DNA of 64,000 bases, taken from the NCBI GenBank assembly GCA_026986005.1, contig JALSPK010000003.1, positions 300 to 64,299 of the forward strand. Direction: 5' to 3'. The notes under the pieces were generated by a model. The model was not told the DNA's origin and searched no databases. It saw nothing but the letters and a program-made list of their open reading frames with translations. The translations under genes were made by a program, and so were the position numbers. Source of the stretch: Saprospiraceae bacterium (GTDB lineage: Bacteria > Bacteroidota > Bacteroidia > Chitinophagales > Saprospiraceae). Position 1 is the stretch's first letter. Every line of letters begins with the position of its first letter. Positions 21,279 to 58,092 of this stretch are shown one piece after another.

Positions 21279-21286
21279 CAAAGGTA
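21279..21286 (-). promoter_or_regulatory. -7 promoter box TACCTTTG upstream of the 18830-21130 gene
   Basis: The reverse complement of caaaggta. It lies inside the N-terminal extension of the ORF-track call, which supports the downstream start at 21130. Confidence 0.4.
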
Positions 21287-21368
21287 AGTCATATTGAAGA
21301 CAAATTAAACTATTCAATGTGAATTTTATATTAAAATTAATATTTTAACATTTTGCTATATATTTTAT

Positions 21369-21604: not shown

Positions 21605-22207
21605 ATGAAAGAAAGGATAAAAAAATATTGGAGAACTAAATCTGCCTTTTCCAAATTCGGCGATGCTTTTTTTATTGTATTTGTCGTAGCAATGTTATTT
21701 CCGCAAGGAAGACTTGCTATTGGAGGTGCTATAAACAGGATTAAAGCTATTTTTGTACAACCCAGCCTTAAAGTTGATGGTGATATACTTTCTGACAAAG
21801 ATTTAAACTGGAAATTACAGAATAAAGAAGGAGAGAATATAGATCTCATAAAATCTAAAGGTAAAGTTATATTTATCAACCTTTGGGCTACTTGGTGTCC
21901 TCCTTGCGTAGGTGAAATGCCTGAAATTCAAAAGTTGTACGACCATTTTAAAGATAATAAAAATATTGATTTTTTTCTTATTACAAATGATAATATCAGC
22001 AAGATTAAATCATTTATCACAAAAAGAGAGTACACTTTTCCTACCTTTCATTCGGTTGGAGAAACTCCTATTCCTTTTCGAGTTAGAAGTATCCCTACGA
22101 CATTTTTAATATCTAAGGATGGAAAAATTGTATTGAAAGAAACCGGAGCAGCAAATTGGGGCGGAAAGAAAATGATTAAAATCGTAGATAATTTAATAAA
22201 TCAATAG
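21605..22207 (+). CDS. TlpA-family thiol:disulfide oxidoreductase (thioredoxin fold)
   Basis: 200 aa. N-terminal TM anchor and a WATWCPPCVGEMPE active site. Confidence 0.85.
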   Translation: MKERIKKYWRTKSAFSKFGDAFFIVFVVAMLFPQGRLAIGGAINRIKAIFVQPSLKVDGDILSDKDLNWKLQNKEGENIDLIKSKGKVIFINLWATWCPPCVGEMPEIQKLYDHFKDNKNIDFFLITNDNISKIKSFITKREYTFPTFHSVGETPIPFRVRSIPTTFLISKDGKIVLKETGAANWGGKKMIKIVDNLINQ

Positions 22208-25722: not shown

Positions 25723-25739
25723 AATTGAATTATTTATAA

Positions 25740-28181: not shown

Positions 28182-28210
28182 ATCAAATCTGTTTTCAAGA
28201 TTTTAAAATT

Positions 28211-29230: not shown

Positions 29231-29707
29231 AATCACCAAGGTTGATTTTAATAAACATTATTACATAACTATACAAATATCGTACTAATTTTTCAATTTA
29301 AATAATTTGAATACACTAAATAAACATAAAAAACACATAAAATAAAGTGATAATTAATGTAATAAAAATATCTCATATATTCTATACTTATTTAAACGAT
29401 ATATATATATTAACAAATTAAGCAATATATTTTAATAAATATCTAAAAAAAAATAAAAAAAAATCGTAAATTTTTCAGCCTTTCCATATAATATATAAGA
29501 AGTACTATTATTTTTTACATCATCTTATCAATTTATTCTTTAATATATAGCAAGTGATAAACTTTTTTGTATCAAATAACGTTCAGTATTCTTGATGTTA
29601 ATTATTTTAATTGTGCTGCAATAAATGATAAGTTTTTTTTTACTAAATAAATATATTTCAGCATAACTATAATTTCGTTTTTACTTGTAAACTAAAAAAA
29701 TATAACT

Positions 29708-30832
29708 ATGAGAAAAATCAACATTGTACTAATAATGCTTCTTTCAATAACCATACTGAATATTGGTTGCAAAACAAGCTCTAAAAGTGGTTTCAACATA
29801 AGGGGAGTCGTAGAAGGAGCAAGGAACAAACCCGTACTATTTGAAAAGACTAGTTTCAATTCTGTCAATGAAACGATCAAAGAAGTCAAAGCAAATAGTG
29901 GAGAATTTGATATAAATGTCGCTCAACATCCCGGTCCTGGTTTGTACAAAGTAAGAATCGGTAGAAATTCCGTTTTATTAATGCTTGATGGTAAGGAGAA
30001 TAACATTGATATAAAGGGTAAATTCACCAAATTTAATAATAGTTACGTTGATATTACCGGCTCAAAACTCACCGAGAAATATGATGGCATTTTGAAAGAC
30101 TTGAAAGACAGAAAAATCAATATAATGAGTGTCAAAGAAGTATCGAAAAAATCCAACCCATTATTAGGATCGATTCTTCTTTTTTCAACCTTCGGCGCAA
30201 AATCTAATTATGCATTTTTGCATGAGACAATGCTAAAAAAGATGAAAACTGAATATCCTGATAATTATTTAACTAAAGAATATGAAGGAATAGTTGAAAA
30301 TTTATTAAAACAATATCAAAGAGAACAAGCAAGAGCTAAAATAAAAGTAGGAGAACCCGCACCTGAAATAATTATGCCAGGCGTTGATGGCAAGACTAGA
30401 AAATTATCAGATTTGAAAGGCAAAATAGTTCTTATTGATTTTTGGGCAAGTTGGTGTGGCCCTTGTGTAAGATCTTTTCCTGAATTGACCAAAATTTATA
30501 ACAAATATAAGAACAAAGGATTTACTGTATTTAGTGTCTCATTGGATGGAATTGACCAAAGAACAGCTAAGCAGAGGTACAAGACTCCTGAGGCTCTCAA
30601 AAAGGCTATAGAAAATTCAAAATCAAGATGGATTAATGCAATTAAGAAACACAATTTAACTTGGGACAATCACGTGAGTGACTTAGATAAATGGGATTGC
30701 AAAGCAGCAGCATTATATGGTGTTAGAAGTATTCCAAGGACTTTTTTAGTGGATAAAAATGGAGTAATAGCAGCTGTTAATCCAAGATTTAACCTTGAGG
30801 AAGCTATTCAAAAAGTACTTGATAAAGAATAG
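29708..30832 (+). CDS. TlpA/AhpC-TSA-family thiol:disulfide oxidoreductase lipoprotein with an N-terminal extra domain
   Basis: 374 aa. Lipobox-like ITILNIGC, active site FWASWCGPCVRSFPE, and an N-terminal ~200 aa domain of the kind fused to such proteins in Bacteroidota. Confidence 0.85.
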   Translation: MRKINIVLIMLLSITILNIGCKTSSKSGFNIRGVVEGARNKPVLFEKTSFNSVNETIKEVKANSGEFDINVAQHPGPGLYKVRIGRNSVLLMLDGKENNIDIKGKFTKFNNSYVDITGSKLTEKYDGILKDLKDRKINIMSVKEVSKKSNPLLGSILLFSTFGAKSNYAFLHETMLKKMKTEYPDNYLTKEYEGIVENLLKQYQREQARAKIKVGEPAPEIIMPGVDGKTRKLSDLKGKIVLIDFWASWCGPCVRSFPELTKIYNKYKNKGFTVFSVSLDGIDQRTAKQRYKTPEALKKAIENSKSRWINAIKKHNLTWDNHVSDLDKWDCKAAALYGVRSIPRTFLVDKNGVIAAVNPRFNLEEAIQKVLDKE

Positions 30833-43090: not shown

Positions 43091-44662
43091 CTACAAATTA
43101 ATTGATTTGCTTATCCCCAATTTAAATTCTAATGAACTAATCATATCATTATTCGGACCTAAGCCTTTAAAATTATAATTATATTGCGGTTCAAAAGTAA
43201 TGGAATATCCTTTGTGCAATTTTCTTTTTAAGCCTAATCCGATATTTGCTGATACAAATAAATTGTCATTTAACTTTGCCCCATCATTTACACCTTTTCT
43301 GTATTCTTTTTTGTAATACAAAGTATTTTTAAAGTCGAAATTTTCCTGAAGATCAGAAGCAAGATGTGATAAAATATGTTTATTTCCTTCTTGATCCAAA
43401 GTATTTTCTGTAAAAACATAATTAGATTCCAACATAGTATTAACTGCTACACCCGCTATTGTATAAATATCCCATTTTTTATTTTCAACAATATGGTATT
43501 TATGTACTAGTGGTATTCTAACTTGGAGATACTCTATTTTATCCAGAAAAAATGAAGATGAGTTGTGCTTTAATATAATTTTGCGAGGAGAATATTTAAG
43601 ATTCACTACATCCAGACCTGATTCTATTTCATGCTTATTCTTTTTATAAGATATCGCCAATCCTCCTCCAACACCCTTTTCAACTTGATTATAACCCGGT
43701 ATATTGAATATAATATCATTGGGAGTTTTTATTAAGTTGGCACTAGGAAATATATGTGCATTTAAAGAAAGACCATTATCCACTTTTCTACTAGGAGAAA
43801 CAAATTGAATACTAGAATCATCATTTGCTTCACCATGAATAATATTTTTATCTATAATAATCTTCTCTGATTTACTTTGTTTTTCATCAAATGCAATTTC
43901 ATTATCTAAACTTTTAGAATTACTATTTTCAAAATAATCTGTGTTATCTTTTCTATTAACAGGAGGATTATTGTTTGAAGCAAATGCATTATTACTACTT
44001 ACACTAAGTCTAACCGAAAAAACAATACCGGAACTTAAGGTATTATAATATTTTGAACTTTCATTATGATAAATTTGTTTTGAATACAAATTATTTACTC
44101 TATCCATTGACAGTCCATAATTGTTATTAATTGATATATTGGAATAATCAGGTAATATTAAATCTCCCAAATAATTGGGTTTTGTTTTTACGGTCTCAAT
44201 TTTATTGTGTTTTTTAAAAACATAGGGTTTGGATAGTACTTCGGAGGACTTTATCTTATCAATTGTAATGGATTTTCCTTTTTTTACAAAAGATGAATCA
44301 TTTTCTTTTGAAATCGTGGCAATTGAAGACCGTTTAGGAGTATTATTGTTATTAATGAAAATCAATCCAGACACCAATAAAAATATCGCAGCAGCAATAC
44401 CGACTAATTTCTTATATTTATATGAATCACGTCTAAAAGAATCGTCGGTATCTAACTTTGATTCTAGCTTATCAAAAGAAGACATACTTACAGGTACTGC
44501 AAATGATTTTAATTTATCTGCAATAACCATATCAAAGATTGCATCCTCTCCTTCTTTCTCTTCTAATTTGCTCTCCAGTCTATCCCACGATCCTACATCA
44601 TAGGGAACTTTCATCCTCTTTAATATACCCGCCATCTCTCTATCAAAATTATTATTCGTCAT
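43091..44662 (-). CDS. Membrane-anchored protein co-transcribed with an ECF sigma factor (putative anti-sigma/sensor with a beta-rich C-terminal domain)
   Basis: 523 aa. Overlaps the sigma gene by 11 nt. One TM segment (LVGIAAAIFLLVSGLIFI) at about aa 85-105, an Asn/Ser-rich linker, and a C-terminal ~200 aa with an alternating beta-strand pattern. Confidence 0.6.
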   Translation of the reverse strand: MTNNNFDREMAGILKRMKVPYDVGSWDRLESKLEEKEGEDAIFDMVIADKLKSFAVPVSMSSFDKLESKLDTDDSFRRDSYKYKKLVGIAAAIFLLVSGLIFINNNNTPKRSSIATISKENDSSFVKKGKSITIDKIKSSEVLSKPYVFKKHNKIETVKTKPNYLGDLILPDYSNISINNNYGLSMDRVNNLYSKQIYHNESSKYYNTLSSGIVFSVRLSVSSNNAFASNNNPPVNRKDNTDYFENSNSKSLDNEIAFDEKQSKSEKIIIDKNIIHGEANDDSSIQFVSPSRKVDNGLSLNAHIFPSANLIKTPNDIIFNIPGYNQVEKGVGGGLAISYKKNKHEIESGLDVVNLKYSPRKIILKHNSSSFFLDKIEYLQVRIPLVHKYHIVENKKWDIYTIAGVAVNTMLESNYVFTENTLDQEGNKHILSHLASDLQENFDFKNTLYYKKEYRKGVNDGAKLNDNLFVSANIGLGLKRKLHKGYSITFEPQYNYNFKGLGPNNDMISSLEFKLGISKSINL

Positions 44663-45215
44663 AAAACTTATCTTTAGATAAAAGTATTTCTTTTAATTTT
44701 TTTCTTGCTTTCACCAAATTACTACGAGAAGTACTCTCACTGATCTTTAGTGTTTTTGCAATCTCTTTATGAGGATAACCCTCCACAACAAACATGTTAA
44801 ATATAGTTCTATACATATAGGATAATTGACGCATAGCCGTTATTATCTCTTCTACAGAAAGTGTTTGCAATGCATCTTCTTCTCTTGTTTTGAGATGATA
44901 TACATTATCCAACTCTACTGTTTTCTTTTTAATTCTCTTTCTGTAATGATCAATAGAGGTATTTACCACTATTCTACTCATCCATCCCTTTAAAGAAGTA
45001 CCCGGTTTATACTTATCTATACTTTTATATATTTTTATATAGCTCTCATGCAAAACATCCTCAGCTTCTTCTCTTGTCCCTGCATATCTCAAACATATAG
45101 GCATTAGCACTTCAAAGTACTCTTCGTACAACTGTTTTTGAGCCCATCTTTTCTTTTTCAAGATACCCTCTATAAGCCCTTCTTCATTTCCCCATATTTT
45201 AAAAGAATAATCCAT
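44652..45215 (-). CDS. ECF-type RNA polymerase sigma-70 family factor
   Basis: 187 aa. Region 2 (WMSRIVVNTSIDHYRK) and region 4 HTH (PHKEIAKTLKISESTSRSNLVKARKKL). Confidence 0.9.
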   Translation of the reverse strand: MDYSFKIWGNEEGLIEGILKKKRWAQKQLYEEYFEVLMPICLRYAGTREEAEDVLHESYIKIYKSIDKYKPGTSLKGWMSRIVVNTSIDHYRKRIKKKTVELDNVYHLKTREEDALQTLSVEEIITAMRQLSYMYRTIFNMFVVEGYPHKEIAKTLKISESTSRSNLVKARKKLKEILLSKDKFYDE

Positions 45216-45625
45216 GTATTTTGTTTCTCTATATATTCAAACGTAAACTTTTCAAAAATGCTGCCTAAAGCTTATATTTTTTTTACACAATTACAATATA
45301 GACAAAAATCTTTCCATAAAGCCAATGCTGAGTTTATCGAAAGCTTCCAAAACTCACAAAAAAACGTAAAAATATCCCATTATCTATTTTTTATCCAAGA
45401 AGAAAAAAAATACCGGAAAATATTTTATTTTTTTTTCAAAGATACAAAATGTATTTAATATTAAATCTCAAATCAAAACAAATTAAACAAAAACATCATA
45501 TCATAACACATTAAAATTAAAGATAATACCAATATTTTTTTGGTATGTTTATTGAAATTATTGAAGTAATGAAAGAAGAATCATAGCGTATTGCTGTGAT
45601 ATGATCTTATTATTAAAACAATAAT

Positions 45626-48600
45626 ATGAAATTAAATTTTAAGCTGATGAGAGAACCATTACAAGATGCTAGAAGGAGGTTATCTAGGGTTTACAAAAAG
45701 CCTTTTATAACCGTTTTTGCCATTATTATTATGGCAATTAATTTGTCTGCCCAAGTACCAAGCGGTACAATTGTAGAAGATTGCACATGCATGAGCAATC
45801 AAACCTATTGTGGAGATGGACAATTTGCAACACTATTGAGGATAACCAACGGAGGTGTTGGAAATACTTGGTATATTGCTTTAGATTCTATTAGAGGATT
45901 ATATAGTACTACTAGTGCTGCACCACCTGCTCCTCCAACGGATTTTGTTACCGGTCCTGCGGGAGAGACATTAACAAATACTGCTGGAGAGACTTATGAA
46001 TTGAATGCGATTCATGAAGATAGTCTTGGATTTTGGGTTAAACTGACAGATGGTACAGATACAATCGAGTTGGAAATAGCTGCTGGACATTGTGTATATC
46101 CTCGAACTAAGATAGTTGGGGATCATTTTGTTTGTGAAGGACAGGTTTCTGATTATTCTACACACACCAATGTAGGAAGCTCGTATTTGTGGACTCTTAC
46201 CAATGATGGAGCTCATGGAGGCACAATGACTACTGCCAATAATATCAATCCTATTACAATATCTTGGGATGACAATTCGGATAATAAGTTTCACAAACTG
46301 CAATTGCAAGAGACTGATGCTAATGGCTGTATAGTATCTGACTCTATATTAGTTCAGATTGAAGATACAATCACTATGGCATGTAATCATGATGTACAAA
46401 TATCATTGGATGCAAATTGTGCAGGAGCTTTGACGGCAGATATGTTTCTGGAAGGTCAACTTTATGAAGATAGTTCATATCAAATAATAATAGAAGACTC
46501 TAATGGTAATCTTGTAGATCAAGACACGCTAAGCAAAGATATGGTAAATAAAGTTTACACTATAACTGTTCAACACAAATGTAGTGGAAATATGTGTTGG
46601 TCATATATGTTGGTTTTGGATAAAAGCGCTCCTGAATTAAATTGTCACGCTGACACTATCAAGTGCTCTGAGAGCATAAAACCTGAAGATTTAACGGATG
46701 GTTTCCCACTGTTGTATTATACTTCGATACAAAAAACATCAAACCCATTTAAGTATATTGCAAAAGGCACAAGTGGATGTAGTGATATGACATTAATTTA
46801 CAGTGATGAAGTTGTTGAGGAATCATGTTCCTCTGATTTTACTTCTACTATTTATAGGACTTGGAGGGTCAATGATGCTTCATTTAATTCAAGTGTATGT
46901 ATCGATACAATCAAGATAGAAAGAACCGGACTATCAGATATTAACTATCCTACAAATTGGGATGGACTACCAGGTAACAATCCTTTTATCCAAGCATGTA
47001 GTTACTATCCTAAAGATGCTAATGGTAATCCTGACCCAAGCAAGACAGGTGCTCCGTCCGGACCTTTTTGCGGAAACCTAATGGTTAACTATTCTGATAA
47101 AAGATTATACCTTTGCGACGATATAGGAGGTCAATCATACAAAGTTTTAAGAAATTGGACGGTGATGGATATGTGTACAGGAGATGGCTTTGATACATTG
47201 CAAATAATTGCTATAATGGACACAAAAAAACCTATTATTTCAATAGGCGGATTAACAAACGGGAATACATTTGTAGTCAATACAGAGTATTACAATTGTG
47301 GAGCAAATGTTGAATTACCGGTAGCTAAAGTTAAAGATTGTAGTATTCAAGATATTCATGAGTATACGGTAGGATATCAATTAGCTGATGCTGATGGCAA
47401 TTACCCTGATCCTACATTTCCATATACGACTTTACACAAAACAGGAGGCAAATTTATTCTACCAAATATTCCGTATAGATTTGCCAGAGTAAAGTATACT
47501 GCTACAGATCCTTGTGGAAATACAAAAGAAAGAATTATTTATGTCAAAGTCATAGACAATCTTCCTCCTCAAGCTGTGTGTGATAAACATACTGCAGTAA
47601 CTTTAAGTGATTTGGGAATAGCTTACTTGAGTAAATATTCATTTGACGATGGTTCGTTTGATAATTGTTCCGAAGTTACTTTGGAAGTAAGAAGGATGAC
47701 AGGAGTCTGTAATCACGATGATTTATCTTGGGGAGAAGGTGTACACTTCTGTTGCGTGGATTCAGGACAAGACTCTGTAGCTGTAGAATTAAAAGTAACA
47801 GATAGCAGAGGATATACAAACAGTTGTATGGCATGGGTAATAGTAAGTGACAATCAAAAACCTCAAATTACTTGTCCTTCAAATGGTACAGTAAGTTGCA
47901 AATTTGATTATTCAGACTTATCGGTTTTCGGTACTGTGAGAAACTCAGAAGATGACGTTGAGAAAATATATGTCAATGACCCTGAAAACGGTGGCAATCA
48001 TCATTATTTCGGTAAAGATGGATTTGCTACTGATAATTGTGATGTTACAGCAAAAATGGTTTACAAACGAGTCAGTATTAATGATTGTGGTGTTGGAACT
48101 ATAATCAGAAGATTTCAAGCAACTGATAGCTATGGAAATAAGTCAAATACTTGTACACAAACAATTAAAGTAATAGATTTCCAACCTTTCGATGCTAACA
48201 ATATTCACGATTTAAGATGGCCAACTGATTATTCGTTTAATGGTTGTCTTGGCGATAACATACTGCCGGACAATTTACCTGAATCTCATGGTTGGCCCAA
48301 AATATTGGGTGATGACCATTGCAGTCAAATAGCAATGGACTATGACGATTTGATCTTTGAACATATTGAAGGTATGTGCTACAAAATAATAAGGACATGG
48401 AGAGTCGTTGATTGGTGCGTATACAATCAAAATCTTCCATATCAACCCGATGGCTATTGGGAACATGTACAAACGATTATGATAACCGATGATAATAATC
48501 CAACTGTAACAGATGGGTGTACTCCTATTGACATTACTCCTCTTGGAAATTGTCAATACAGATACCATTTCAAAGCAAATGGAGATGATAATTGCACAAG

Positions 48601-50374
48601 TTCTACAGATTTAATATGGTCATATAAAGTAAACATAGACAATTCACCAACGGATGTGGTAGAAGGCACTACCGATGAATTTAATATTGTCTTATCAAAA
48701 GGTACACACAAAATAACCTGGTACGTTGAAGATAATTGTGGAAATATTGGACAATGCTCTAAAGTCTTTACAGTTACTGATGAGAAAGCACCCACTCCAC
48801 AATGTATAGATGGCTTAGTTACAGTAGTATTGCCCGAAAGTGGAAATATTACTATACATGCGGCTGACTTCAACAGACACAGTACTGATGACTGTACAAG
48901 GAGCAATTATGGGTCTTGTGGTTGTTTGACAGATTTGTCATTCTCGTTCTCAAGCAATAGATTTGAAAGAGACTTGACTTTAACGTGCGCAAATATTGCT
49001 AATGGCATCATAGATACGATTCCTTTAACTATATGGGTTTGGGATGAGTCTCACAACGGTGATTTTTGCAATACATATATAGTATTACAAGATAATAATG
49101 ATGCATGTGAAGATGTTCTTCCTGTATACGACACTACTTTTTATAATCTAGCAGGAATTGTACAAAAGCCAAATGAATCTCCTATGGAAGATATCAAGGT
49201 TCTTTTGACAAATGAAAATCCTGAATACAGCGCTGAAGTCAATACTAATGAAAATGGTGAATTTGTATTTGATCATCTTGCAGATAATTTGAACTTCAAC
49301 TTGAAGGCTGAAAGAAATGGAGATTATCTAAACGGTGTTTCTACTTTGGATATCGTATACATACAAAAACATTTATTGGGAATTAAAAAATTCGATAAAC
49401 CATATAAGTACATCTCTGCTGATATCAATAAATCAAATAGCATTACAGCTTCTGATATTTTAGAGCTTAGAAAACTGATTCTTGGAAAAATAAACAAGTT
49501 TTCTAAAGCAGATTCTTGGGTATTTATAGATAAAGATCAAAAATTTGAGAATAACAACCGACCTTTTGACTATAAAAGTATAGTTAACCTTGGTCTATTA
49601 AATGAAAATACAAATAAAAATTTAATTGCAATAAAAGTCGGTGATATTAATCAGTCAGCAATAACAGGTGGTGAATTGGCTTCCAGAAGCAAAAATAAAA
49701 TAGCGTTATTGACAAATAACATATCCTACAAGCAAGGTAACGCTGTCGAAATAGAATTTGCGGTTGTTGATGATTTGTCAACTATTGGAACACAGTTTAC
49801 ATTTGAATTTGATCCGGATAAGTTATCTTTTAACAATATTGAGAGTGAATACTTCAAAACATCTGATCAAAACATAAACAAATCCAAAGTAGGTGAAGGT
49901 TTATTGATGGTTTCTTTTGACGAATCAATTGCCAAAGAAATAGAGAAAGACAATAATTTATTTACAATAAGCTTTACAGCAAAAGAAAATGGTGTATTGA
50001 GCAATTCAATAAAGATTAGTTCAAAAATCACTAAAGCGGAAATTTACACAGTGGAAAACAATGATTTTGTAGAGAATGAATTGAATTTAGAGTACAGAAA
50101 TGCAGACATTTATTCTTTCAAGGTATTCCAAAATATTCCAAATCCATTTAATTCAAAAACAGTAATTGGATTCGAATTACCACAAGAAGAAACTGTATCG
50201 CTTGAAGTATATGACATGACAGGAAAGGTGCTTTATCAAATCAATAAAGATTTTGACAAAGGGTACAACGAAATTAAACTGACAAATGATCTTCTCAATG
50301 TTACAGGACTACTGTACTACAAACTTGAAGCAGGAGAATATTCAGCAATTAGAAAAATGATTTTAATAAAATAG
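45626..50374 (+). CDS. Giant T9SS type A cargo protein with Cys-rich HYR/Ig-like repeats, a dockerin-like module and a cohesin-like module (paralog A)
   Basis: 1582 aa. Signal/anchor FITVFAIIIMAINLSAQ and recurrent ..D.CGN.. repeat ends. Dockerin-like pair LDIVYIQKHLLG / ADINKSNSITASDILELRKLILG (about nt 49331-49500). Cohesin-like AVEIEFAVVDDLSTIGTQFTFEFDPDKLSF. The C-terminus QNIPNPFNSKTVIGF...GLLYYKLEAGEYSAIRKMILIK matches the type A CTD. Confidence 0.9.
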   Translation: MKLNFKLMREPLQDARRRLSRVYKKPFITVFAIIIMAINLSAQVPSGTIVEDCTCMSNQTYCGDGQFATLLRITNGGVGNTWYIALDSIRGLYSTTSAAPPAPPTDFVTGPAGETLTNTAGETYELNAIHEDSLGFWVKLTDGTDTIELEIAAGHCVYPRTKIVGDHFVCEGQVSDYSTHTNVGSSYLWTLTNDGAHGGTMTTANNINPITISWDDNSDNKFHKLQLQETDANGCIVSDSILVQIEDTITMACNHDVQISLDANCAGALTADMFLEGQLYEDSSYQIIIEDSNGNLVDQDTLSKDMVNKVYTITVQHKCSGNMCWSYMLVLDKSAPELNCHADTIKCSESIKPEDLTDGFPLLYYTSIQKTSNPFKYIAKGTSGCSDMTLIYSDEVVEESCSSDFTSTIYRTWRVNDASFNSSVCIDTIKIERTGLSDINYPTNWDGLPGNNPFIQACSYYPKDANGNPDPSKTGAPSGPFCGNLMVNYSDKRLYLCDDIGGQSYKVLRNWTVMDMCTGDGFDTLQIIAIMDTKKPIISIGGLTNGNTFVVNTEYYNCGANVELPVAKVKDCSIQDIHEYTVGYQLADADGNYPDPTFPYTTLHKTGGKFILPNIPYRFARVKYTATDPCGNTKERIIYVKVIDNLPPQAVCDKHTAVTLSDLGIAYLSKYSFDDGSFDNCSEVTLEVRRMTGVCNHDDLSWGEGVHFCCVDSGQDSVAVELKVTDSRGYTNSCMAWVIVSDNQKPQITCPSNGTVSCKFDYSDLSVFGTVRNSEDDVEKIYVNDPENGGNHHYFGKDGFATDNCDVTAKMVYKRVSINDCGVGTIIRRFQATDSYGNKSNTCTQTIKVIDFQPFDANNIHDLRWPTDYSFNGCLGDNILPDNLPESHGWPKILGDDHCSQIAMDYDDLIFEHIEGMCYKIIRTWRVVDWCVYNQNLPYQPDGYWEHVQTIMITDDNNPTVTDGCTPIDITPLGNCQYRYHFKANGDDNCTSSTDLIWSYKVNIDNSPTDVVEGTTDEFNIVLSKGTHKITWYVEDNCGNIGQCSKVFTVTDEKAPTPQCIDGLVTVVLPESGNITIHAADFNRHSTDDCTRSNYGSCGCLTDLSFSFSSNRFERDLTLTCANIANGIIDTIPLTIWVWDESHNGDFCNTYIVLQDNNDACEDVLPVYDTTFYNLAGIVQKPNESPMEDIKVLLTNENPEYSAEVNTNENGEFVFDHLADNLNFNLKAERNGDYLNGVSTLDIVYIQKHLLGIKKFDKPYKYISADINKSNSITASDILELRKLILGKINKFSKADSWVFIDKDQKFENNNRPFDYKSIVNLGLLNENTNKNLIAIKVGDINQSAITGGELASRSKNKIALLTNNISYKQGNAVEIEFAVVDDLSTIGTQFTFEFDPDKLSFNNIESEYFKTSDQNINKSKVGEGLLMVSFDESIAKEIEKDNNLFTISFTAKENGVLSNSIKISSKITKAEIYTVENNDFVENELNLEYRNADIYSFKVFQNIPNPFNSKTVIGFELPQEETVSLEVYDMTGKVLYQINKDFDKGYNEIKLTNDLLNVTGLLYYKLEAGEYSAIRKMILIK

Positions 50375-50457
50375 AACCGATTTATAAGGAGTGTTAGCTT
50401 ATCACAAGCTAGCGCTCCTAAATCCCAATCTATTAAAATAAAATAAAATTATAAAAA

Positions 50458-53400
50458 ATGAAAAATTATTTACAAAACATAAGCAAAGTGTTTAAATCTA
50501 CACTTACTTTAATAGTATTCTCTCTGTTTGCTATTTCAATGCAAGCACAGTGTGATACTAAAATTTCCGATGCTGAAAACGATGGCAAGGATTATGTGTG
50601 CGCAGAGTCGACTACAGATTATCAAGCTATAAGATCAGCGGTAACCGGAAGCACAATCTCTTGGACATTGTGCGGCGGCGGTACTATTTTAAATACTACT
50701 GATGACAATACGACATCAAGTGTATCCATACAATGGGATAGCCTACCGGGAACAGGACCTTACTGTCTAAAGATGACTGAGACTAATGCAGGTTGTACTA
50801 ATACAGAGATTTTGGATATTTATATTGAAAAGTCGAATTTGGTTATGGCTTGCAACACGCTGGTATTGGTAGCATTGGACAATAATTGTAGAGATACAAT
50901 TGGAGCAGATCAAATTATTGAAGCTCCATTATATCCTGATCCAAGTTATGACGTAACAGTATTTAATACAAATAATACAATTAGACCTGAACCAATAGTT
51001 AACATGCAAGATTTGGGTGATACATTGATGGTGGTAGTAACCCACAGATGTTCCGGACTATCGTGCATGGGTAGAATTGCATTTCAAGACAATCTAGCTA
51101 CTATGTTATCCTGTAGAGCAGACACTATCAAGATAGAATGCGATGAAAGCATTGACCCTGAAAATACCAATGTCGGTTTTCCGCTAGTTGCTGGTTCAAC
51201 CGTTCATAAAATTGATAATAGAAGATATAGTGCAACTATTCCGGGTGATTGTGGTGGTGAATTTACCTTAGTTTATTCAGACAATGTTATTGACCAAGTC
51301 TGTGGGGTAAATGATTACCAGTACATAATCGAAAGAACCTGGACTGCAATAGATGCATCTGGAAATGGGTGGTCTTGTACTGAATTGATCGCACAAAAGT
51401 GGGGTGATTTCGATAGTATGACTTTACCACCTCACTACGATGGAATGAATGGAAGATTGTTCTTCCAATGCAATGATAATCACCCAAATGCTAATGAATC
51501 TATCTATTGGCCATATAAAGATTCAATTCCAACACCTGAAATTACTGGGTATCCTCAATATGCTTCATGTAGCAATATACAATTTCTATATGAGGACTTA
51601 ACTATTCCTGGTTGTGGTTATAACAGAAAAGTTTTGAGACATTGGATAATTCTAGATTGGTGTACAGGTAGGGATAAACAATATGATCAAGTATTATCTT
51701 TTATTGATGATACTCCTCCTATTTTTCACTTACCTCCAAATACAGCTGAATACAATGCTGATCCTGAAAGGTGCTTTGGTACAGCTTATCCTTTACCTGA
51801 ACCAATAGTGGACTGGGAATGTTCTGAATATACATGGGAAGTCATCGGCTATAGCTTTACTAGTACTGGTTTATGCGGACCAACACACTCTACCACAGAT
51901 GGATTATATGAAGATAGTAATGGCAATTGGGGAATACACAATCTTCCCGTTGATACGGTAGTATGTGTATCTTATAAAGTAACCGATGCGTGCGGTTTAT
52001 TCGAATATGGAAATATAAAAGTCGTAATAAGAGACAACCAAAAACCAACAGCTGCATGTGATGCTCATACGGTAGTGACCGTTGGTGTAAATGCAAAACT
52101 CTATGCTACTTCATTGGACAATCACAGCTGGGACAATTGCGGAATAAAAAAGCTTGAAATCAAAAGACTCACTAATAAGTGTGGAAATTCACACGATTTG
52201 CAATACGGAGAATCCGTAGATATGTGCTGCAATGATGTCGGCCATGATGTTGTTGTAAAACTAAAAGTTTACGATATTCATGGATTGACAAGTGAATGTA
52301 CAGGAATAGTACATGTACAAGATAAAGAAAAACCTGTTTTGACTTATTGTCCACCTAATTTCACAATTGACTGTGAGCAAAGCTATACAAATTTCTTTCC
52401 TGGAGGGAAACCTACAGCAACTGATAACTGTTCAATGCTTCCTCCTACTAAAACAGATAGTCCTAATTTGAATAATTGCGGTTTTGGAACGATAAGAAGG
52501 ACATGGGTACTTAAAGATAAAGCAGGATTGGAAACAATACATAAATGTGTTCAAATAATCACTGTAATCGATAAACATCCTTTGACATTTTCAGATATTC
52601 ACTGGCCTACTAACAAGACATTGAGTGGATGTTGGCCAGATGTTGATTATAGTGAAAGTGTTACAGGAATACCAACAATAGATAATACTACATGTAAAAG
52701 CTTGGGAATTGCACACACGGATAAGATTATACATAATCCCATTAATTCCAATTCCTGTGTTGTTATAGAAAGGACTTTTACTATAGGAGATTGGTGTAAT
52801 CCTAATGCAGATTATATCACATATAAACAGTTTATTTATATCAATGACGGAGGAGATCCATATTTTACTCTTTGTACACCGGATACGACAATATCAAGTG
52901 GTACAGCATGCTCAGCAAACGTAACTTTAAAAGCAAAAGCCGAAGATGATTGCACTCCTGATAATGCACTTAAATATACTTACGAAATTGATCTTGACAA
53001 TGACGGAACTATTGATTATACAGGTACTGGTAACATAATAAACCGCACCTTTGATAGCGGTAGACACAAGATAGTATTTACTGTAACAGATGGGTGTGAT
53101 AATTCGGTAACTTGTACACGATATGTAAGAGTCAAAGACACTAAACCTCCTACCCCTTTGTGTTTAAGAAAAATCACAACAACCCTAGGAGTGGATGGAA
53201 CTACAACCGTTAATGCAAAAATATTTAACCATGGTAGTATTGATAATTGTACACCAAATAACTATGGAACTTGTGGTTGTGGTACAGATTTAAGATTTTC
53301 TTTCTCTGAAAATGTTAATGATAAGACTAGAACCTACACTTGTGACAGTCTGGATAACGGAGTAGGTAAGAAATTTGATTTAGATGTATGGGTAACAGAT

Positions 53401-54720
53401 CTAGATGGAAATAAAGATTTCTGCAAAGTGATACTTAACATCATGGATAGTCAAAATGCTTGTCCGGACGCACTAAATCCATTAGTAATGGTCAAAGGTA
53501 CCATTATGGATGATAAGCTAAACGGAATAGAAGGCTTCAAAGTTAATGGCTTGACATTGAATCAAGTTGTTGAGGATGTTGCAGAAACCAATGTAGACGG
53601 ACAGTATTATCTTGAAAATTTAGGCGCATACAATAAATATCAAGTAGCTCCTGACAAAAACGATAATGTTTTGGATGGTCTTACTACTTTGGATATCGTT
53701 CTTATACAAAAGCACTTGCTAGGTATAAAGAAATTTGACGATCCTTATAAGTATATAGCTGCCGATGCCAATGACTCTAAGTCAGTGACGGCAAGTGATA
53801 TATTACAATTGAGAAAGTTAATATTGGGAAGAATGAATGAATTACCATCAAAAAAATCATGGAAATTCATCACAGCAAAGACTGAATTTGACAATCCGAC
53901 ACATCCTTGGAACTTTGAAGAAAAGTATATTACAGACAGCCTATTCTTTGAACAAGATAGCTTTGACTTTATCGCAATAAAAATTGGAGATATCAATCAC
54001 TCTTCCGATGCATACAGTTCTAGTACTGTAATTGAATCAAGATCAGAAGATAAGTTTTTAAGTACTTTAAACACTTCTTTTGAAACATCAGATTTAGTAC
54101 CTGTGGAACTTAAAGCAGAGGATATTGATATGGTTTCAGGTTTCCAATTTACTCTTGAGTATGACCAAAGCAAATTGAAATTTGTAAATATTGAGAATGG
54201 AATTATTGATTTACAATACAACAATTACAATGTAATAAATGAAAATGGCATTATAACTTTTAGTTGGAATCGAGCAAATCCTTTTAATTTGGCACAGGCG
54301 AGTAAATTATTTACAATTAATTTTATGGCAAAGTCAAATGGCTTGCTTAGTGAAAGCATAAGAATATCATCAAAAATAACCAAATCGGAAATATATTCAG
54401 ACGGACTTGATGTTTCTGAGTTGGAATTAAGGTTTGATGGTAATTCCCTCGAAAACGACGAAATATTTATTAGCCAAAACATACCGAATCCATTTTCAAA
54501 TAATACAGAAGTTATTATAAATCTACCTCAAGAAACTGATTTAGATTTCAGAATAATGGATTCAACCGGAAGAATTTTAAAAAGCACACACAGGCATTAC
54601 TCAAAAGGACAAAACTCAATCACAATTTCAGGTACAGAACTAGGAAAACCGGGATTGTACTTCTATGAAATAACAACAAAAAAATCATCAACCATTAAAA
54701 GAATGGTTTATATAAAATAA
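50458..54720 (+). CDS. Giant T9SS type A cargo protein with HYR/Ig-like repeats, a dockerin-like module and a cohesin-like module (paralog B)
   Basis: 1420 aa, collinear with paralog A. Signal peptide LIVFSLFAISMQAQ. Dockerin-like LDIVLIQKHLLG / ADANDSKSVTASDILQLRKLILG (about nt 53671-53840). Cohesin-like VELKAEDIDMVSGFQFTLEYDQSKLKF. The C-terminus QNIPNPFSNNTEVIINL...GLYFYEITTKKSSTIKRMVYIK matches the type A CTD. Confidence 0.9.
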   Translation: MKNYLQNISKVFKSTLTLIVFSLFAISMQAQCDTKISDAENDGKDYVCAESTTDYQAIRSAVTGSTISWTLCGGGTILNTTDDNTTSSVSIQWDSLPGTGPYCLKMTETNAGCTNTEILDIYIEKSNLVMACNTLVLVALDNNCRDTIGADQIIEAPLYPDPSYDVTVFNTNNTIRPEPIVNMQDLGDTLMVVVTHRCSGLSCMGRIAFQDNLATMLSCRADTIKIECDESIDPENTNVGFPLVAGSTVHKIDNRRYSATIPGDCGGEFTLVYSDNVIDQVCGVNDYQYIIERTWTAIDASGNGWSCTELIAQKWGDFDSMTLPPHYDGMNGRLFFQCNDNHPNANESIYWPYKDSIPTPEITGYPQYASCSNIQFLYEDLTIPGCGYNRKVLRHWIILDWCTGRDKQYDQVLSFIDDTPPIFHLPPNTAEYNADPERCFGTAYPLPEPIVDWECSEYTWEVIGYSFTSTGLCGPTHSTTDGLYEDSNGNWGIHNLPVDTVVCVSYKVTDACGLFEYGNIKVVIRDNQKPTAACDAHTVVTVGVNAKLYATSLDNHSWDNCGIKKLEIKRLTNKCGNSHDLQYGESVDMCCNDVGHDVVVKLKVYDIHGLTSECTGIVHVQDKEKPVLTYCPPNFTIDCEQSYTNFFPGGKPTATDNCSMLPPTKTDSPNLNNCGFGTIRRTWVLKDKAGLETIHKCVQIITVIDKHPLTFSDIHWPTNKTLSGCWPDVDYSESVTGIPTIDNTTCKSLGIAHTDKIIHNPINSNSCVVIERTFTIGDWCNPNADYITYKQFIYINDGGDPYFTLCTPDTTISSGTACSANVTLKAKAEDDCTPDNALKYTYEIDLDNDGTIDYTGTGNIINRTFDSGRHKIVFTVTDGCDNSVTCTRYVRVKDTKPPTPLCLRKITTTLGVDGTTTVNAKIFNHGSIDNCTPNNYGTCGCGTDLRFSFSENVNDKTRTYTCDSLDNGVGKKFDLDVWVTDLDGNKDFCKVILNIMDSQNACPDALNPLVMVKGTIMDDKLNGIEGFKVNGLTLNQVVEDVAETNVDGQYYLENLGAYNKYQVAPDKNDNVLDGLTTLDIVLIQKHLLGIKKFDDPYKYIAADANDSKSVTASDILQLRKLILGRMNELPSKKSWKFITAKTEFDNPTHPWNFEEKYITDSLFFEQDSFDFIAIKIGDINHSSDAYSSSTVIESRSEDKFLSTLNTSFETSDLVPVELKAEDIDMVSGFQFTLEYDQSKLKFVNIENGIIDLQYNNYNVINENGIITFSWNRANPFNLAQASKLFTINFMAKSNGLLSESIRISSKITKSEIYSDGLDVSELELRFDGNSLENDEIFISQNIPNPFSNNTEVIINLPQETDLDFRIMDSTGRILKSTHRHYSKGQNSITISGTELGKPGLYFYEITTKKSSTIKRMVYIK

Positions 54721-54747
54721 CAGCATCTTAATTTCATAGGTATTTAG

Positions 54748-54777
54748 AGCCGGGTAATTTGATTATCCGGCTTTTTG
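54748..54777 (+). terminator. Rho-independent terminator after paralog B
   Basis: agccgg-gtaatttgattat-ccggct followed by ttttt. Confidence 0.7.
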
Positions 54778-55131: not shown

Positions 55132-58092
55132 ATGTCACATAATAATAATAATAATATTGTACAATCTTTTATAAATAGAGCAAATAAACACAGAGATATT
55201 TACCATGACTTAATGCCGTTTAAAGTAAAAGAAATTCTATTGGTTTCTCATTTATACGATGCATATTTAATAGAAGGAGAGGGACGTTTCTCCGAAATTA
55301 TGTTGTATGAATATGGTCATCTTAATTTGTCATCATTACCTCGAATAACCGGGGCTTCTTTTTCTGAAGATGTTTGTAAGCATTTCAAAAAAAGAAAAAT
55401 AGATCTCATCATCTTGATGGTTGGGTTAGATAAAGATCAACCGATGGAATTGGCTAAGCAAATAAAAGAAAAGTACCCTGATAAACCAATATTTTTCCTG
55501 CTTCATGACAGAACTTATGAAAAATATTTTGTAAAAAAATTACCGACAGGATACATTGATATGATATTTGAATGGAATGGAGAGACAAAGATATTCTTTG
55601 CCATGATCAAATATCTTGAGGACAAAATGAATGCCAAGAACGACACAAAAATAGGGTCGGTAAGATTGATTCTTTTAGTTGAAGATAAACCGATCTATTA
55701 TTCTGCCTTTTTATCAAGCATATACAAAATTATATTTGACCAGACAAACAAAGTAATAGAAGAAATATCTACAGACAATGCTTTTAAGGTGCTTAAATTA
55801 AGAATCCGACCAAAAGTGATTTTAGCAAGGAATTATGAGGATGCAATAGAACTGTTCAATGAGTATAAGGACTATCTTTACTGTTTATTGACAGATGTCA
55901 GGTTTGAAAAAGACAATAAAATAAATTTGAACGCAGGGTTTGAACTTATCGAAGAGATAAAGAAACATAAAAAAGAATTGCCAACGATAGTCATCTCTTC
56001 TGAAGACAGAGCTAAAGACAAAGCAAAGGAACTAAAAGTAGAATTTATTCATAAGCATACAGAATTTTTAAATAAAGAATTGCGAAAAAAAGTTGTGCAA
56101 AATCTAAATTTCGGAGATTTTATTTTCAAAAACAAAGATGGAGAAAAAATAGGAAAGGCAAAATCAATCAAGCAGTTCAAAGCTATGATAAAATCCGTAT
56201 CAGATGAGACAATCATGTACCATGCGCACAAAGATGATTTTTCGCAATGGTTACTCGCCAGAAGCGAAATACTATTAGCAAAAATACTGAATTTAAAAAA
56301 GACATCAGATTTTACATCACCTACAGAAATAAGAGAGTTTCTTCTCAATACTATAAAAAATTATGCCGACGAAAAATCTCAGGGTAATGTTTTACCCATT
56401 GAATCTGATCAATGCAATTCAGAAGGCAATATTGTATCTTTGTTCAATGGTGCTTATGGGGGTAAAGGCAGAGGTTTAACTTTTGCAAATTCTTTATTCA
56501 ATCAATTCAAATTAGAAAATAAGTTTTCGGATATAATCATCAAACTTCCAAAGACAGCAGTAATCGGAGTTAAGGAATTTGAAGAATTTATTACTAATAT
56601 TGATTTAGATCTGACCAATAATAACATACCTTCATATGGAGAAGTTAAAGAAAAGTTTTTAGCTAATGAATTGAGTGACTTATTGAAAAGCAGATTGAAA
56701 AAACTAATAACTTGCTTCACAAAACCATTAGCAATAAGATCCTCCGGTTCCTTTGAGGATAGTCTTTCAAGACCTTTTGCCGGGATTTTCGAGACCTATG
56801 TTATTCCTAATAATCACGAAGACATTGAAGTTAGATTCATCCAAATTCAAGATGCGATAAAATTAGTGTTTGCTTCTGTTTTTTCAGAAAAAGCTTTAAA
56901 CTATGCCAAAGCATTAGACCAGAGAATTGAAGAGCAACAAATGGCAATTGTCATACAAGAATTGGTAGGAAAAAACCACAATGGATTGTATTATCCTCAT
57001 TTTAGTGGTGTAGCACAATCATACAATTTTTATCCTTTTGCCAATATGCAACCTGAAGACGGCTTTTCTGTTATCGCTTTCGGTCTGGGAATGTACGTTG
57101 TCAATGGAGAGAATGCTTATAGGTTTTCACCCATGTATCCTCAAATACAGGTCTTGTCATTTGAAGATCAAATTAAATACACACAAACATATTTTTACGC
57201 TTTAGATACGGATAAGAAAGAATATGATTTAAGCAAAGGCGCGATGGAAACTATTAAGAAAGTGGATATATATGATGCTCGAAGTCACAACACTCTTACA
57301 CATTGTGTCTCTGTTTATGATGTAAATAATCTTCGACTTTACCCCGGAGCAAATAGACAAGGTCCAATTGTTGTTAATTTCCCAAGCATTCTTAAAACAG
57401 AATATATTCCATTAGCTGATGTACTAAATTATTTGCTCGGTGTTTTCGAAAAATCGTTTGGGACTCCTGTAGAGATAGAATTTGCAGTCGACCTAGATGA
57501 AAAACCAACATTTTATTTATTACAGGTAAAACCTTTGATTAAAGCTGTCAAAGACTATTCCATTGATGCAAATAAAATCATTAAAGAAAAAACTATTCTG
57601 TATTCGGAAAAAATAATGGGAAACGGCAAGATTGATTATCTGAGAGACATTGTTTTTGTTAAACCGGATGCTTTTGACAATACCAAAACAAATGAAATGG
57701 TAAATGAAATAAGCAGTATTAACGATACTATGGTTCAACAAGGCAAACAATATGTATTGATAGGTCCGGGACGTTGGGGTACAAGAGATAGATTTTTGGG
57801 TATTCCGGTCACGTGGCCTCAAATTAGTGGGGCAAAAGTAATAGTCGAAACAGATTTGGATGGCTTTCCTCTTGATGCTTCATATGGTTCGCATTTTTTT
57901 CACAATCTAACAAGTTTAAACATTGCATACTTTTCAATCATGATAGGTGATAATAGTTATTTGAATTTAGAGCTGTTAGATAGCGTCAATATTATTCAAG
58001 AAAATAAATACTTTAAACATATACGTTTCAAAAAACCTTTTGTTATTAAAATGGATGGAAAAAAGAGATTGGCTCTTATTGAAATTGAATGA
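55132..58092 (+). CDS. PEP/pyruvate-binding (PPDK_N ATP-grasp) domain protein with N-terminal receiver-like domains
   Basis: 986 aa. REC-like block VRLILLVEDKP...CLLTDVRF...PTIVISS, preceded by a degenerate REC-like block. ATP-grasp motifs GGKGRGLTF, LAIRSSGSFEDSLSRPFAGIFETY and MAIVIQELVG. No TSHAA-type swivel-His motif is visible. Confidence 0.85.
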   Translation: MSHNNNNNIVQSFINRANKHRDIYHDLMPFKVKEILLVSHLYDAYLIEGEGRFSEIMLYEYGHLNLSSLPRITGASFSEDVCKHFKKRKIDLIILMVGLDKDQPMELAKQIKEKYPDKPIFFLLHDRTYEKYFVKKLPTGYIDMIFEWNGETKIFFAMIKYLEDKMNAKNDTKIGSVRLILLVEDKPIYYSAFLSSIYKIIFDQTNKVIEEISTDNAFKVLKLRIRPKVILARNYEDAIELFNEYKDYLYCLLTDVRFEKDNKINLNAGFELIEEIKKHKKELPTIVISSEDRAKDKAKELKVEFIHKHTEFLNKELRKKVVQNLNFGDFIFKNKDGEKIGKAKSIKQFKAMIKSVSDETIMYHAHKDDFSQWLLARSEILLAKILNLKKTSDFTSPTEIREFLLNTIKNYADEKSQGNVLPIESDQCNSEGNIVSLFNGAYGGKGRGLTFANSLFNQFKLENKFSDIIIKLPKTAVIGVKEFEEFITNIDLDLTNNNIPSYGEVKEKFLANELSDLLKSRLKKLITCFTKPLAIRSSGSFEDSLSRPFAGIFETYVIPNNHEDIEVRFIQIQDAIKLVFASVFSEKALNYAKALDQRIEEQQMAIVIQELVGKNHNGLYYPHFSGVAQSYNFYPFANMQPEDGFSVIAFGLGMYVVNGENAYRFSPMYPQIQVLSFEDQIKYTQTYFYALDTDKKEYDLSKGAMETIKKVDIYDARSHNTLTHCVSVYDVNNLRLYPGANRQGPIVVNFPSILKTEYIPLADVLNYLLGVFEKSFGTPVEIEFAVDLDEKPTFYLLQVKPLIKAVKDYSIDANKIIKEKTILYSEKIMGNGKIDYLRDIVFVKPDAFDNTKTNEMVNEISSINDTMVQQGKQYVLIGPGRWGTRDRFLGIPVTWPQISGAKVIVETDLDGFPLDASYGSHFFHNLTSLNIAYFSIMIGDNSYLNLELLDSVNIIQENKYFKHIRFKKPFVIKMDGKKRLALIEIE

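Follow-up and report, generated by a model that had tools for sequence, protein, structure and literature searches.

Cohesin–dockerin biology is well established. A catalogue assembled by Peer and co-workers in 2009 is said to cover non-cellulosomal modules as well, some of them on one protein (Archaeoglobus fulgidus) and of unknown function, with Bacteroidetes listed. For type IX secretion systems (T9SS), the surface organization of cargo is described by two modes, covalent anchoring to anionic lipopolysaccharide (A-LPS) for type A C-terminal domains (CTDs) and PorP-type anchoring for type B CTDs; beyond these, how T9SS cargo is organized after export is poorly understood. Here, we analyze a 64-kb stretch of a Saprospiraceae bacterium contig (JALSPK010000003.1; the whole stretch is called the window, and positions are counted from its first letter). 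Within it, two tandem genes encode giant proteins, termed A and B, that each end in a cassette with a dockerin-like module, a cohesin-like module, and a T9SS CTD, and they lie divergent from a sigma factor gene. Our favored reading, with a probability of about 0.5, takes A and B to be T9SS cargo of an adhesin-like kind, each with a C-terminal cassette that would serve as a bivalent cohesin–dockerin connector.

Cellulosomal type I pairs, such as those of Clostridium thermocellum CipA (Protein Data Bank (PDB) 1anu, 1aoh, 4dh2, 4uyp), resemble the cassette in their three-helix F-hand dockerin of two segments, which has basic residues at positions 17 and 18, and in their nine-strand cohesin with an F.F.YD-type motif on strand 3. 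Unlike these pairs, the cassette belongs to a diderm Bacteroidota host, is predicted to be exported by the T9SS, and carries dockerin and cohesin on one polypeptide. Its dockerin also departs from the cellulosomal form in being a β-sandwich insertion, in a conserved 55-aa extension, and in an atypical first Ca loop. A and B contain neither enzymes nor carbohydrate-binding modules (CBMs), their cargo being an immunoglobulin (Ig)-like stalk, and no enzyme or CBM of the cellulosome type was found anywhere in the window. The window does not encode a cellulosome-like complex, and the SprB-type proteins with 2–5 cohesins found in related loci have adhesin-like dockerin partners.

Closer in phylogeny is the cellulosome-like system of the Cloacimonadota 'Ca. 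Stygibacter', inferred from metagenome-assembled genomes (MAGs) and consisting of a tandem-cohesin scaffoldin with a T9SS CTD and of dockerin-bearing secreted proteins (PMC8542988). The two cases share the Fibrobacteres–Chlorobi–Bacteroidetes (FCB) group, a multi-cohesin protein with a T9SS CTD, secreted dockerin proteins, and inference from MAGs only. In 'Ca. Stygibacter', the dockerins sit on enzymes and the scaffoldin has CBMs, whereas here both modules are found on non-enzymatic, adhesin-like cargo, and scaffoldin-like proteins encoded at related loci combine SprB repeats with a CTD of type B. Giant Ig-repeat T9SS adhesins of Bacteroidota and Saprospiria are represented by SprB of Flavobacterium johnsoniae and GhpA of Aureispira (bioRxiv 10.1101/2024.01.29.577165). 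A and B are likewise giant Ig-repeat T9SS substrates, and multi-cohesin neighbors in related loci bear SprB repeats and CHU_C; unlike SprB and GhpA, A and B have a type A CTD, no adjacent PorP/PorE genes, and no SprB repeats. That A and B are grappling hooks of the Aureispira GhpA kind was considered and rejected, as GhpA differs in CTD type and gene neighbors and has no cohesin or dockerin.

Two further systems are non-cellulosomal. In Chlorobium chlorochromatii, the adjacent giant BIg-repeat proteins Cag_2037 and Cag_2038 were proposed to be linked by a cohesin–dockerin pair, an interaction modeled with AlphaFold 3 (bioRxiv 10.64898/2026.03.19.712371). They match A and B in being neighboring giant Ig-repeat surface proteins in a non-cellulolytic setting; each has one module and is exported by a type I secretion system, whereas A and B have both modules each and a T9SS CTD. 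The top Foldseek match, the cohesin–FN3 portion of Clostridium perfringens GH84C (2w1n), is a non-cellulosomal cohesin followed by a β-sandwich that assembles secreted proteins. It belongs to a Gram-positive toxin/glycosidase complex, and the match is one of cohesin-plus-sandwich shape only, at 14% identity.

The locus spans positions 43091–54720. A 523-aa open reading frame (ORF; 43091–44662, − strand) shares 11 nt (44652–44662) with the sigma gene (44652–45215, −), and across a divergent intergenic region of 410 bp and 22% GC (45216–45625) lie A (45626–50374, +; 1582 aa) and B (50458–54720, +; 1420 aa). GC content across the window is 29–36%. These coordinates reproduce those of the first-pass annotation, including the overlap of the sigma gene with a single-helix membrane protein gene, the AT-rich divergent region, and the two collinear paralogs. 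A and B are encoded on the same strand and align end to end with 34% identity over 1453 aligned residues. In public gene calls, A begins at Met8 and has 1575 aa, yet the ATGAAATTAAATTTT start is invariant across three genomes. The 83-bp gap between A and B has no terminator-like site in our scan, and a terminator-like hairpin of 13 pairs with a T run lies 26 nt past the B stop codon (54746–54774, +; a consensus match only). Because of this gap and this hairpin, A and B probably form one transcription unit that ends after B.

The cassette comprises the last ~410–415 aa of each paralog, in the order prealbumin-like sandwich with an inserted dockerin, short linker, cohesin, and type A CTD. An AlphaFold2 (AF2) model was built for B, using an alignment of 91 sequences, and gave a mean predicted local distance difference test (pLDDT) of 93.7 and a predicted template-modeling score (pTM) of 0.79. 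In this model, cassette residues 8–65 (cpd) form five strands, residues 76–121 (doc) three helices (76–86, 95–101, 111–121), residues 134–174 (mid) three strands, residues 198–326 (coh) the β domain of the cohesin, and residues 348–417 (ctd) the CTD sandwich. In A, the N-terminal strands of the prealbumin/CarboxypepD_reg-like sandwich occupy residues 1175–1229 (49148–49312, +), followed by the dockerin-like module with its two F-hand segments (residues 1230–1288; 49313–49489, +). A mid segment of the form SW.F ... F.AIK.GD.N.S, recognized by the mid hidden Markov model (HMM) and by cpd–mid covariation, would complete the sandwich around the dockerin (49490–49687, +). It is followed by the cohesin-like module (residues 1355–1492; 49688–50101, +) and the CTD (residues 1505–1579; 50138–50362, +). 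The corresponding parts of B are the N-terminal sandwich strands (residues 1009–1066; 53482–53655, +), the dockerin-like module (residues 1067–1125; 53656–53832, +), the mid segment with invariant Trp, Lys, and Gly-Asp residues (cassette W134, K174, G176, D177; 53833–54048, +), the cohesin (residues 1201–1329; 54058–54444, +), and the CTD (residues 1343–1417; 54484–54708, +).

The cohesin of B is identified by Pfam (PF00963, 40–41.3 bits against a gathering threshold of 24.1), by Foldseek, and by direct coupling analysis (DCA). Its model aligns with 1anu, 1aoh, 6kge, and 5nrk at Foldseek E values of ~1e-5 and target-normalized template-modeling scores of 0.6–0.67. The AF2 strands within residues 198–326, Foldseek, and the DCA pairings agree on a nine-strand jelly roll with an 8-3-6-5 sheet. 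The cohesin of A, 37% identical to that of B, has no Pfam match and is recognized by a family cohesin HMM (103.9 bits) and by an independent HMM made from unrelated scaffoldin-type cohesins (E 1.7e-9). The cohesin-like modules claimed by the first-pass annotation therefore hold for B by Pfam and by AF2 with Foldseek, and for A by family-level HMMs only, Pfam having missed it.

The dockerins are the more uniform modules, at 70% identity between A and B. Each matches the family dockerin HMM (102.3 bits for A, 100.9 for B), and the B module also matches a solved dockerin (PDB 4uyp_B, E 0.009). The family dockerin profile recovers 4uyq_B (8.4e-5) and 2vn5_B (1.9e-4), and Dockerin_1 matches are found in 85 of the 91 family members (E ≤ 0.01), the best at E 2e-14. 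Both dockerins contain two Ca-loop/helix F-hand segments and a linking helix. Loop 2 is canonical (D-x-N-x-[SD]-..-D), and the recognition positions, T-L..Q-K and A-S..R-K, are identical in A and B. The first-pass annotation's EF-hand pairs thus stand as two-segment dockerins at the level of the family, with both copies below the Pfam gathering threshold.

Its assignment of type A CTDs to both paralogs is borne out by TIGR04183 (A 29.9 bits, B 36.6 bits; cut-off 23), and the Pfam model for the same domain (PF18962, threshold 27) is passed by B (31.1 bits) and missed by A (22.1 bits). The CarboxypepD_reg-like segment that it noted is sub-threshold in Pfam for A (24.4 bits) and for B, and it is retained on the strength of a cpd HMM match in A and the five modeled strands in B. 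When the dockerin was removed in silico, the Pfam match to CarboxypepD_reg grew no longer, which leaves the insertion unsupported by that HMM.

Upstream of the cassette, A carries a signal peptide (residues ~1–42) and a Cys-rich array of Ig-like β-sandwiches to residue ~1170, and B a signal peptide (residues ~1–30) and an Ig-like array to residue ~1005. Both signal peptides, already listed by the first-pass annotation, were read by eye, with cleavage contexts ..LSA|Q in A and ..MQA|Q in B. An AF2 model of B residues 1–1010 (pLDDT 81.6, pTM 0.33) is an all-β chain of ~10 sandwich domains, and Foldseek matched it to cadherin, contactin, titin, and S-layer arrays and to no enzyme. About 40 cysteines are invariant in orthologs of the giants. 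The predicted stalk of A and B is accordingly a string of ~1000–1150 aa of disulfide-rich, Ig-like β-sandwich beads with no enzyme domain. PDB sequence searches with the N-terminal 1000–1170 aa of A and B returned no match. Because the modeled bead chain of B matches cadherin, contactin, and titin arrays, the Ig-like part of the proposed "HYR/Ig-like repeats" is confirmed; the HYR part is sub-threshold in both proteins (PF02494; A best 16.5 bits against 21.7, B E 0.29) and is seen only in homologs, which carry PF02494 and PF23237.

We then consider how the cassette modules relate to one another. Mutual information and mean-field DCA were computed on 354 non-redundant cassettes. The top DCA pairs are mostly intra-module and include the cohesin pairings β3–β6 (228–267, 227–268) and β3–β8 (231–304/307, 227–310); recovery of these known strand pairings indicates that the signal is real. 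Pairs between cpd and mid are enriched (23–172, 16–171, 28–178, 64–153), as are pairs between doc and mid (117/120/103/70–128, 82–178). From these enriched couplings, the mid strands appear to complete the prealbumin-like sandwich, and the dockerin appears to be an insertion held against it. The best doc–coh pairs join R118 (segment 2, position 17) to S268 and N270 on β6 and G123 (position 22) to residue 306 before β8; R118–S268, R118–N270, and G123–306 rank 71, 79, and 102 of ~82,000 pairs. The G123/306 pattern is multi-state, with Gly paired to Ile/Val/Leu and Phe/His/Asn/Gln/Tyr paired to Tyr/Phe. Mean pairwise identity is 56% for the dockerin, the most conserved module, and 26% for the cohesin, whose most conserved polar residues (Q229 at 99%, S268, E310, and Y312) lie on strands 3, 6, and 8. 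In type I complexes, the interface is formed by these same dockerin and cohesin surfaces. The position of the top doc–coh couplings and of the conserved residues on the canonical interface is suggestive of binding.

The cassette is far more widespread than this locus. A word-indexed search returned 115 relatives, mostly in MAGs of Saprospiraceae, Chitinophagales, and other Bacteroidota, and the named ones are annotated as 'cohesin' or 'dockerin domain-containing protein' or as 'T9SS type A sorting'. When 1.84 billion representatives were searched exhaustively with a profile, at least 10,002 protein clusters with the cassette were found (E ≤ 1e-30); in all of the best 150 of these, the whole cassette sits at the extreme C-terminus of proteins of 523–5918 aa. 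A metagenome scan added at least 537 confirmed matches, from which 80 loci were kept for locus comparisons (related loci are cited by L numbers), and in these the cassette is again always C-terminal. Two or more tandem cassette genes occur in 18 of the 80 loci, with arrays of up to four (L092) and six (L004), so that the family grows, on this sequence evidence, by local duplication. The L004 array (5529–17932; Chitinophagales, GCA_017303875.1) consists of genes for proteins of ~440–770 aa, and the L092 array (1–14296; GCA_964486185.1) of genes for proteins of 1431–2104 aa. An A-type gene stands first and a B-type gene second in L011, L090, L091, L024, and L014, and this order persists down to ~35–42% identity. 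Retention of the A-then-B order over such a span of divergence points to an old, order-conserved pair with a joint function.

A literature search with incomplete coverage found no description of a fixed sandwich(dockerin)–cohesin–type A CTD cassette, its abundance, its tandem arrays, or its SprB-type multi-cohesin partners. The cassette is apparently an undescribed variant of non-cellulosomal cohesin–dockerin architecture, one that is real and widespread. This locus is not unique in carrying it.

Candidate partners in trans are encoded beside cassette genes. A cohesin-only ORF adjoins a cassette gene in 9 related loci; among the 64 loci whose downstream sequence runs to 1.5 kb or more, 7 have such an ORF starting within 1 kb downstream. 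In 7 of the 9, the ORF has 2–5 cohesin modules, and in L022, which ends at a contig edge, it has one. The scaffoldin-like proteins (L012:7136–11728, L018:11664–14759, L030:3133–6333, L032:11299–15378, L034:11454–14612, L038:286–3303, L044:12261–16784, and L046:12363–17003) have a signal peptide, cohesins at the N-terminus, and a T9SS CTD of type B, and all of their genes directly neighbor cassette genes. In Pfam scans, those of L044, L012, and L018 run from a signal peptide through several cohesins (50–107 bits) and SprB repeats to a type B CTD of the CHU_C family; in the others, the CTD motif is visible at the C-terminus. In sequence, these multi-cohesin SprB/CHU_C proteins resemble a scaffoldin placed on a SprB-like stalk. 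L044 and L046 also encode proteins of 257–270 aa, consisting of a signal peptide, a cohesin, and a type A CTD, between the scaffoldin-like and the cassette genes.

Dockerin-only proteins form the complementary set. Their C-terminus is the dockerin-plus-mid unit, ending exactly at ..IK.GDVNGSAD. The existence of orphan cohesins and orphan dockerins argues that the modules may act in trans somewhere in the cassette family. The dockerin-only proteins include P0108, P0111, P0112, and P0115 of the thioredoxin/redoxin family and P0087–P0102 (~280–340 aa). Several are thiol-disulfide oxidoreductase-like, and cassette proteins are Cys-rich; the TlpA-like genes of the window (21605–22207, 29708–30832) encode no dockerin.

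In the connector reading, and in line with established knowledge of the T9SS, A and B would be exported by this system with their CTD removed or anchored. This would place the cohesin next to the cell surface, topped by the dockerin. Helices 1 and 3 of the dockerin would bind cohesin strands 8-3-6 through their canonical faces, and each molecule would become a bivalent connector holding A, B, other cassette proteins, or dockerin-only proteins at the stalk bases. The outcome may be a laterally cross-linked adhesive coat, or the retention of released copies, rather than an end-to-end fiber. In other lineages, cassette dockerins would load onto SprB-type filaments with 3–5 N-terminal cohesins. 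Secretion, anchoring, Ca dependence, and binding are all steps that we infer. Since the dockerin recognition residues of A and B are identical and the cohesin faces similar, pairing is probably promiscuous (A–A, A–B, and B–B) and not strictly alternating.

Several observations weigh against the connector reading. Taken alone, both dockerins fall below the Pfam Dockerin_1 gathering threshold (PF00404, 22.9; A 20.9 bits, B 16.2–21.1 bits), and so does the cohesin of A for its own Pfam model. Dockerin loop 1 reads [ND]-D-[DN]-x-L-N-G-V-S-T-L-D; Leu occupies ligand position 5, and a near-invariant Asn-Gly comes next. Doc–coh pairs are depleted among the top 200 DCA pairs (6 against 19.6 expected), the R118 signal comes from only 18 sequences, possibly of a single subclade, and no multi-cohesin protein is encoded within the 64-kb window. 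Finally, the AF2 model combines its pTM of 0.79 with a pLDDT of 79–85 in the 17-residue linker before the cohesin. For a multi-module chain, such a pTM implies a fixed arrangement, which makes it plausible that dockerin and cohesin of the same chain bind or pack against each other, with nothing left for binding in trans. The cassette would then be a rigid, Ca-stabilized pedestal between stalk and CTD, with a role in export competence, spacing, or stability instead of protein–protein assembly. Its stereotyped position directly before the CTD fits this proposal, and covariation cannot separate cis from homotypic trans contacts. The proposal is harder to reconcile with the cohesin-only genes (mostly with 2–5 cohesins) and signal peptide–cohesin–CTD genes that adjoin cassette genes, or with the dockerin-only proteins that carry the same module, all of which call for trans partners; couplings of the cohesin with the sandwich and with mid are also depleted. 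On balance, we consider a purely cis role rather unlikely, though it is the leading alternative to the connector.

A lower likelihood attaches to the idea that the dockerin-like module has a conserved binding partner other than a cohesin, such as a component of the T9SS attachment complex, a surface glycan, or LPS, and that the cohesin is an Ig-type spacer whose resemblance reflects ancestry. One universal partner would fit an unusually uniform dockerin (56% mean identity in metagenomes of soil, marine, and freshwater origin, with near-invariant IQKH.LG and LRKLILG) next to a cohesin that varies, and T9SS cargo often has an Ig-like domain ahead of the CTD. What makes this improbable is that conserved polar residues lie on cohesin strands 3, 6, and 8, that the top doc–coh couplings fall at canonical positions, and that cassette genes are found in genomic linkage with those for multi-cohesin proteins. 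The first-pass annotation had instead proposed alternating, head-to-tail chaining of A and B into an extended surface fiber, for which one dockerin and one cohesin per protein and the conserved A–B pair can be cited. The dockerin lies ~130 residues upstream of the cohesin, and the cohesin directly precedes the CTD, so links would join the cell-proximal bases of the stalks and add no length. Nothing would enforce alternation, as A and B have the same residues at the dockerin recognition positions and resemble each other in their cohesin faces. We regard the fiber as very improbable, and the connector joining stalk bases remains our preferred reading.

The divergent genes bear on how A and B might be controlled. 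The 187-aa protein is a standard group IV sigma-70 factor with regions 2 and 4 only. It scores above threshold for Sigma70_r2 (53 bits) and r4_2 (53 bits) and passes the cut-off of the extracytoplasmic function (ECF) model TIGR02937 (90.7 bits against 42.9). The 523-aa protein, whose overlapping gene is taken to be co-transcribed with that of the sigma factor, is a putative anti-sigma factor by position only: it matches no Pfam or NCBIfam family, anti-sigma families included, and has no HxxxCxxC motif. Its N-terminal ~85 aa are cytoplasmic and contain two [SW][WF]D[RK]LESKL repeats, a single hydrophobic transmembrane helix was read from the sequence at residues ~86–103 (44354–44407), and the last 229 aa (43094–43780) give weak matches to outer-membrane β-barrels (OMP_b-brl_2, E 0.01; DUF3996, E 0.003). 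A homolog search returned 5 matches at 32–43% identity. Its orthologs in L001 and L011 are 43% and 32% identical, against 57–89% for the flanking genes there, which indicates unusually fast evolution.

The closest public relatives of the window are Saprospiraceae MAGs that share its gene order. L001 retains the block of 523-aa-type gene, sigma gene, A, and B, with A and B 80% identical; L011 also retains it, at 57% identity for A, 60% for B, 71% for the sigma factor, and 32% for the membrane protein, with different genes downstream. The sigma orthologs, 88% identical in L001 and 71% in L011, hold the same divergent position. No sigma gene lies near the orthologous A–B pairs of L090 (42% identity), L091 (~35%), or L092 (34%), and no divergent sigma gene was found at the other cassette loci among the 80. 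The case for ECF control of the giants, suggested as a possibility in the first-pass annotation, is one of position, because the sigma gene is kept only in L001 and L011, relatives in which A and B reach 57% identity or more; the synteny comparison does not extend it past these close relatives.

Upstream sequences were compared among the window, L001, and L011. A TACGTTTG element (TAnnTTTG-type) for the sigma gene lies at 45238–45245 (−), 29 nt from the sigma ATG, in all three. No + strand TAnnTTTG was found upstream of A in any of them, and it is likewise absent upstream of A-like genes without a sigma gene. A block of the form TTTTTGGTATG..TATTG..GAATCAT, with an N2–3 spacing between TTTTTGGTATG and TATTG, is conserved in the three genomes ~85 nt upstream of A (45537–45584). 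GGTATG is also present upstream of the A-like genes in L090 and L014, both without a sigma gene. No ECF-type motif common to the regions upstream of the sigma gene and of A was found in this three-genome comparison, and a sigma-70 consensus promoter scan was uninformative on this AT-rich Bacteroidota sequence. In L001, an insertion of ~650 bp (4140–4790) separates the sigma gene from the A ortholog; neither the window nor L011 has it. The insertion includes several copies of CCCTTTGTGAGGG-like repeats, inverted or direct, and could be a miniature inverted-repeat transposable element (MITE) or a repetitive extragenic palindromic (REP)-like element.

By position, the ECF sigma and membrane-protein pair may regulate the A–B operon in this clade. 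The strongest form of this idea is a dedicated regulator, in which an envelope signal frees the sigma factor for transcription from the divergent promoter. In its favor, the window, L001, and L011 all retain the divergent arrangement despite broken downstream synteny in L011; the sigma gene has a housekeeping-type TAnnTTTG element where A has none; and the block upstream of A is conserved in all three genomes. These points are offset by the A–B pairs of L090–L092 that have no adjacent sigma gene at 34–42% identity, by the lack of a divergent sigma gene at any other of the 80 loci, by the absence of TAnnTTTG from A-like genes without a sigma gene, and by the lack of an identified ECF-type promoter motif. 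A dedicated regulator is therefore possible but doubtful.

The remainder of the window provides a T9SS context, as it encodes PorP/SprF (86.7 bits) along with further cargo bearing CHU_C or a CTD; the core genes SprA, PorKLMN, and PorU/V are not in the window. An apparent operon (22246–29239, −) consists of PorP/SprF (28211–29239), an 813-aa PD40-repeat protein (25740–28181), and a 1158-aa Ig_7/PKD/CHU_C type B cargo protein (22246–25722), in a layout that resembles the anchoring clusters sprF–sprB or ghpA–C. A third giant (6539–11290, +; 1583 aa), which has no dockerin, combines SprB repeats with a P_proprotein-like segment and a type B CTD that matches CHU_C weakly. It was considered as a scaffoldin and rejected, as searches with three HMMs found no cohesin in it at E ≤ 1. 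The ORF that comes next (11302–12351, +; 349 aa) belongs to no Pfam family. Another probable T9SS cargo protein, of 820 aa and with a type A CTD close to threshold, is encoded at 18830–21292 (−; Por_Secre_tail 25.5 bits against 27). Downstream of B, a 986-aa fusion of a response-regulator receiver with PPDK_N, a phosphoenolpyruvate-utilizing, ATP-binding family (55132–58092, +), is preceded by a 105-aa cupin; synteny of the fusion is kept in L001, L002, and L010 and not in L011.

Extending the connector reading beyond A and B leads to a broader and more tentative proposal. Saprospiria, Chitinophagia, and related Bacteroidota may possess a general cohesin–dockerin docking system for T9SS cargo, in which more than 10,000 cargo families share the tail. 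Cargo would clip to each other and to type B-anchored, SprB-like filaments that present 3–5 distal cohesins, dockerin-tagged accessory proteins such as thioredoxin-fold enzymes would be recruited, and A and B would be one conserved heteromeric pair. If true, this would amount to a cellulosome-style scaffold mounted on gliding or adhesin machinery. We consider it a possibility that the present evidence leaves less likely than the connector role of A and B itself. The modules are small, highly conserved, and expressible alone, which makes the hypothesis directly testable, and they could serve as orthogonal, Ca-dependent connectors for Gram-negative surface display. Even if binding were in cis only, the cassette would be a very common, unannotated structural unit of T9SS cargo. 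If the connector role holds, a non-covalent cohesin–dockerin layer would be a third organizing principle for T9SS cargo, alongside A-LPS and PorP-type anchoring; it would account for the frequent tandem giant Ig-repeat proteins and would join the biology of the cellulosome to that of the Bacteroidota surface.

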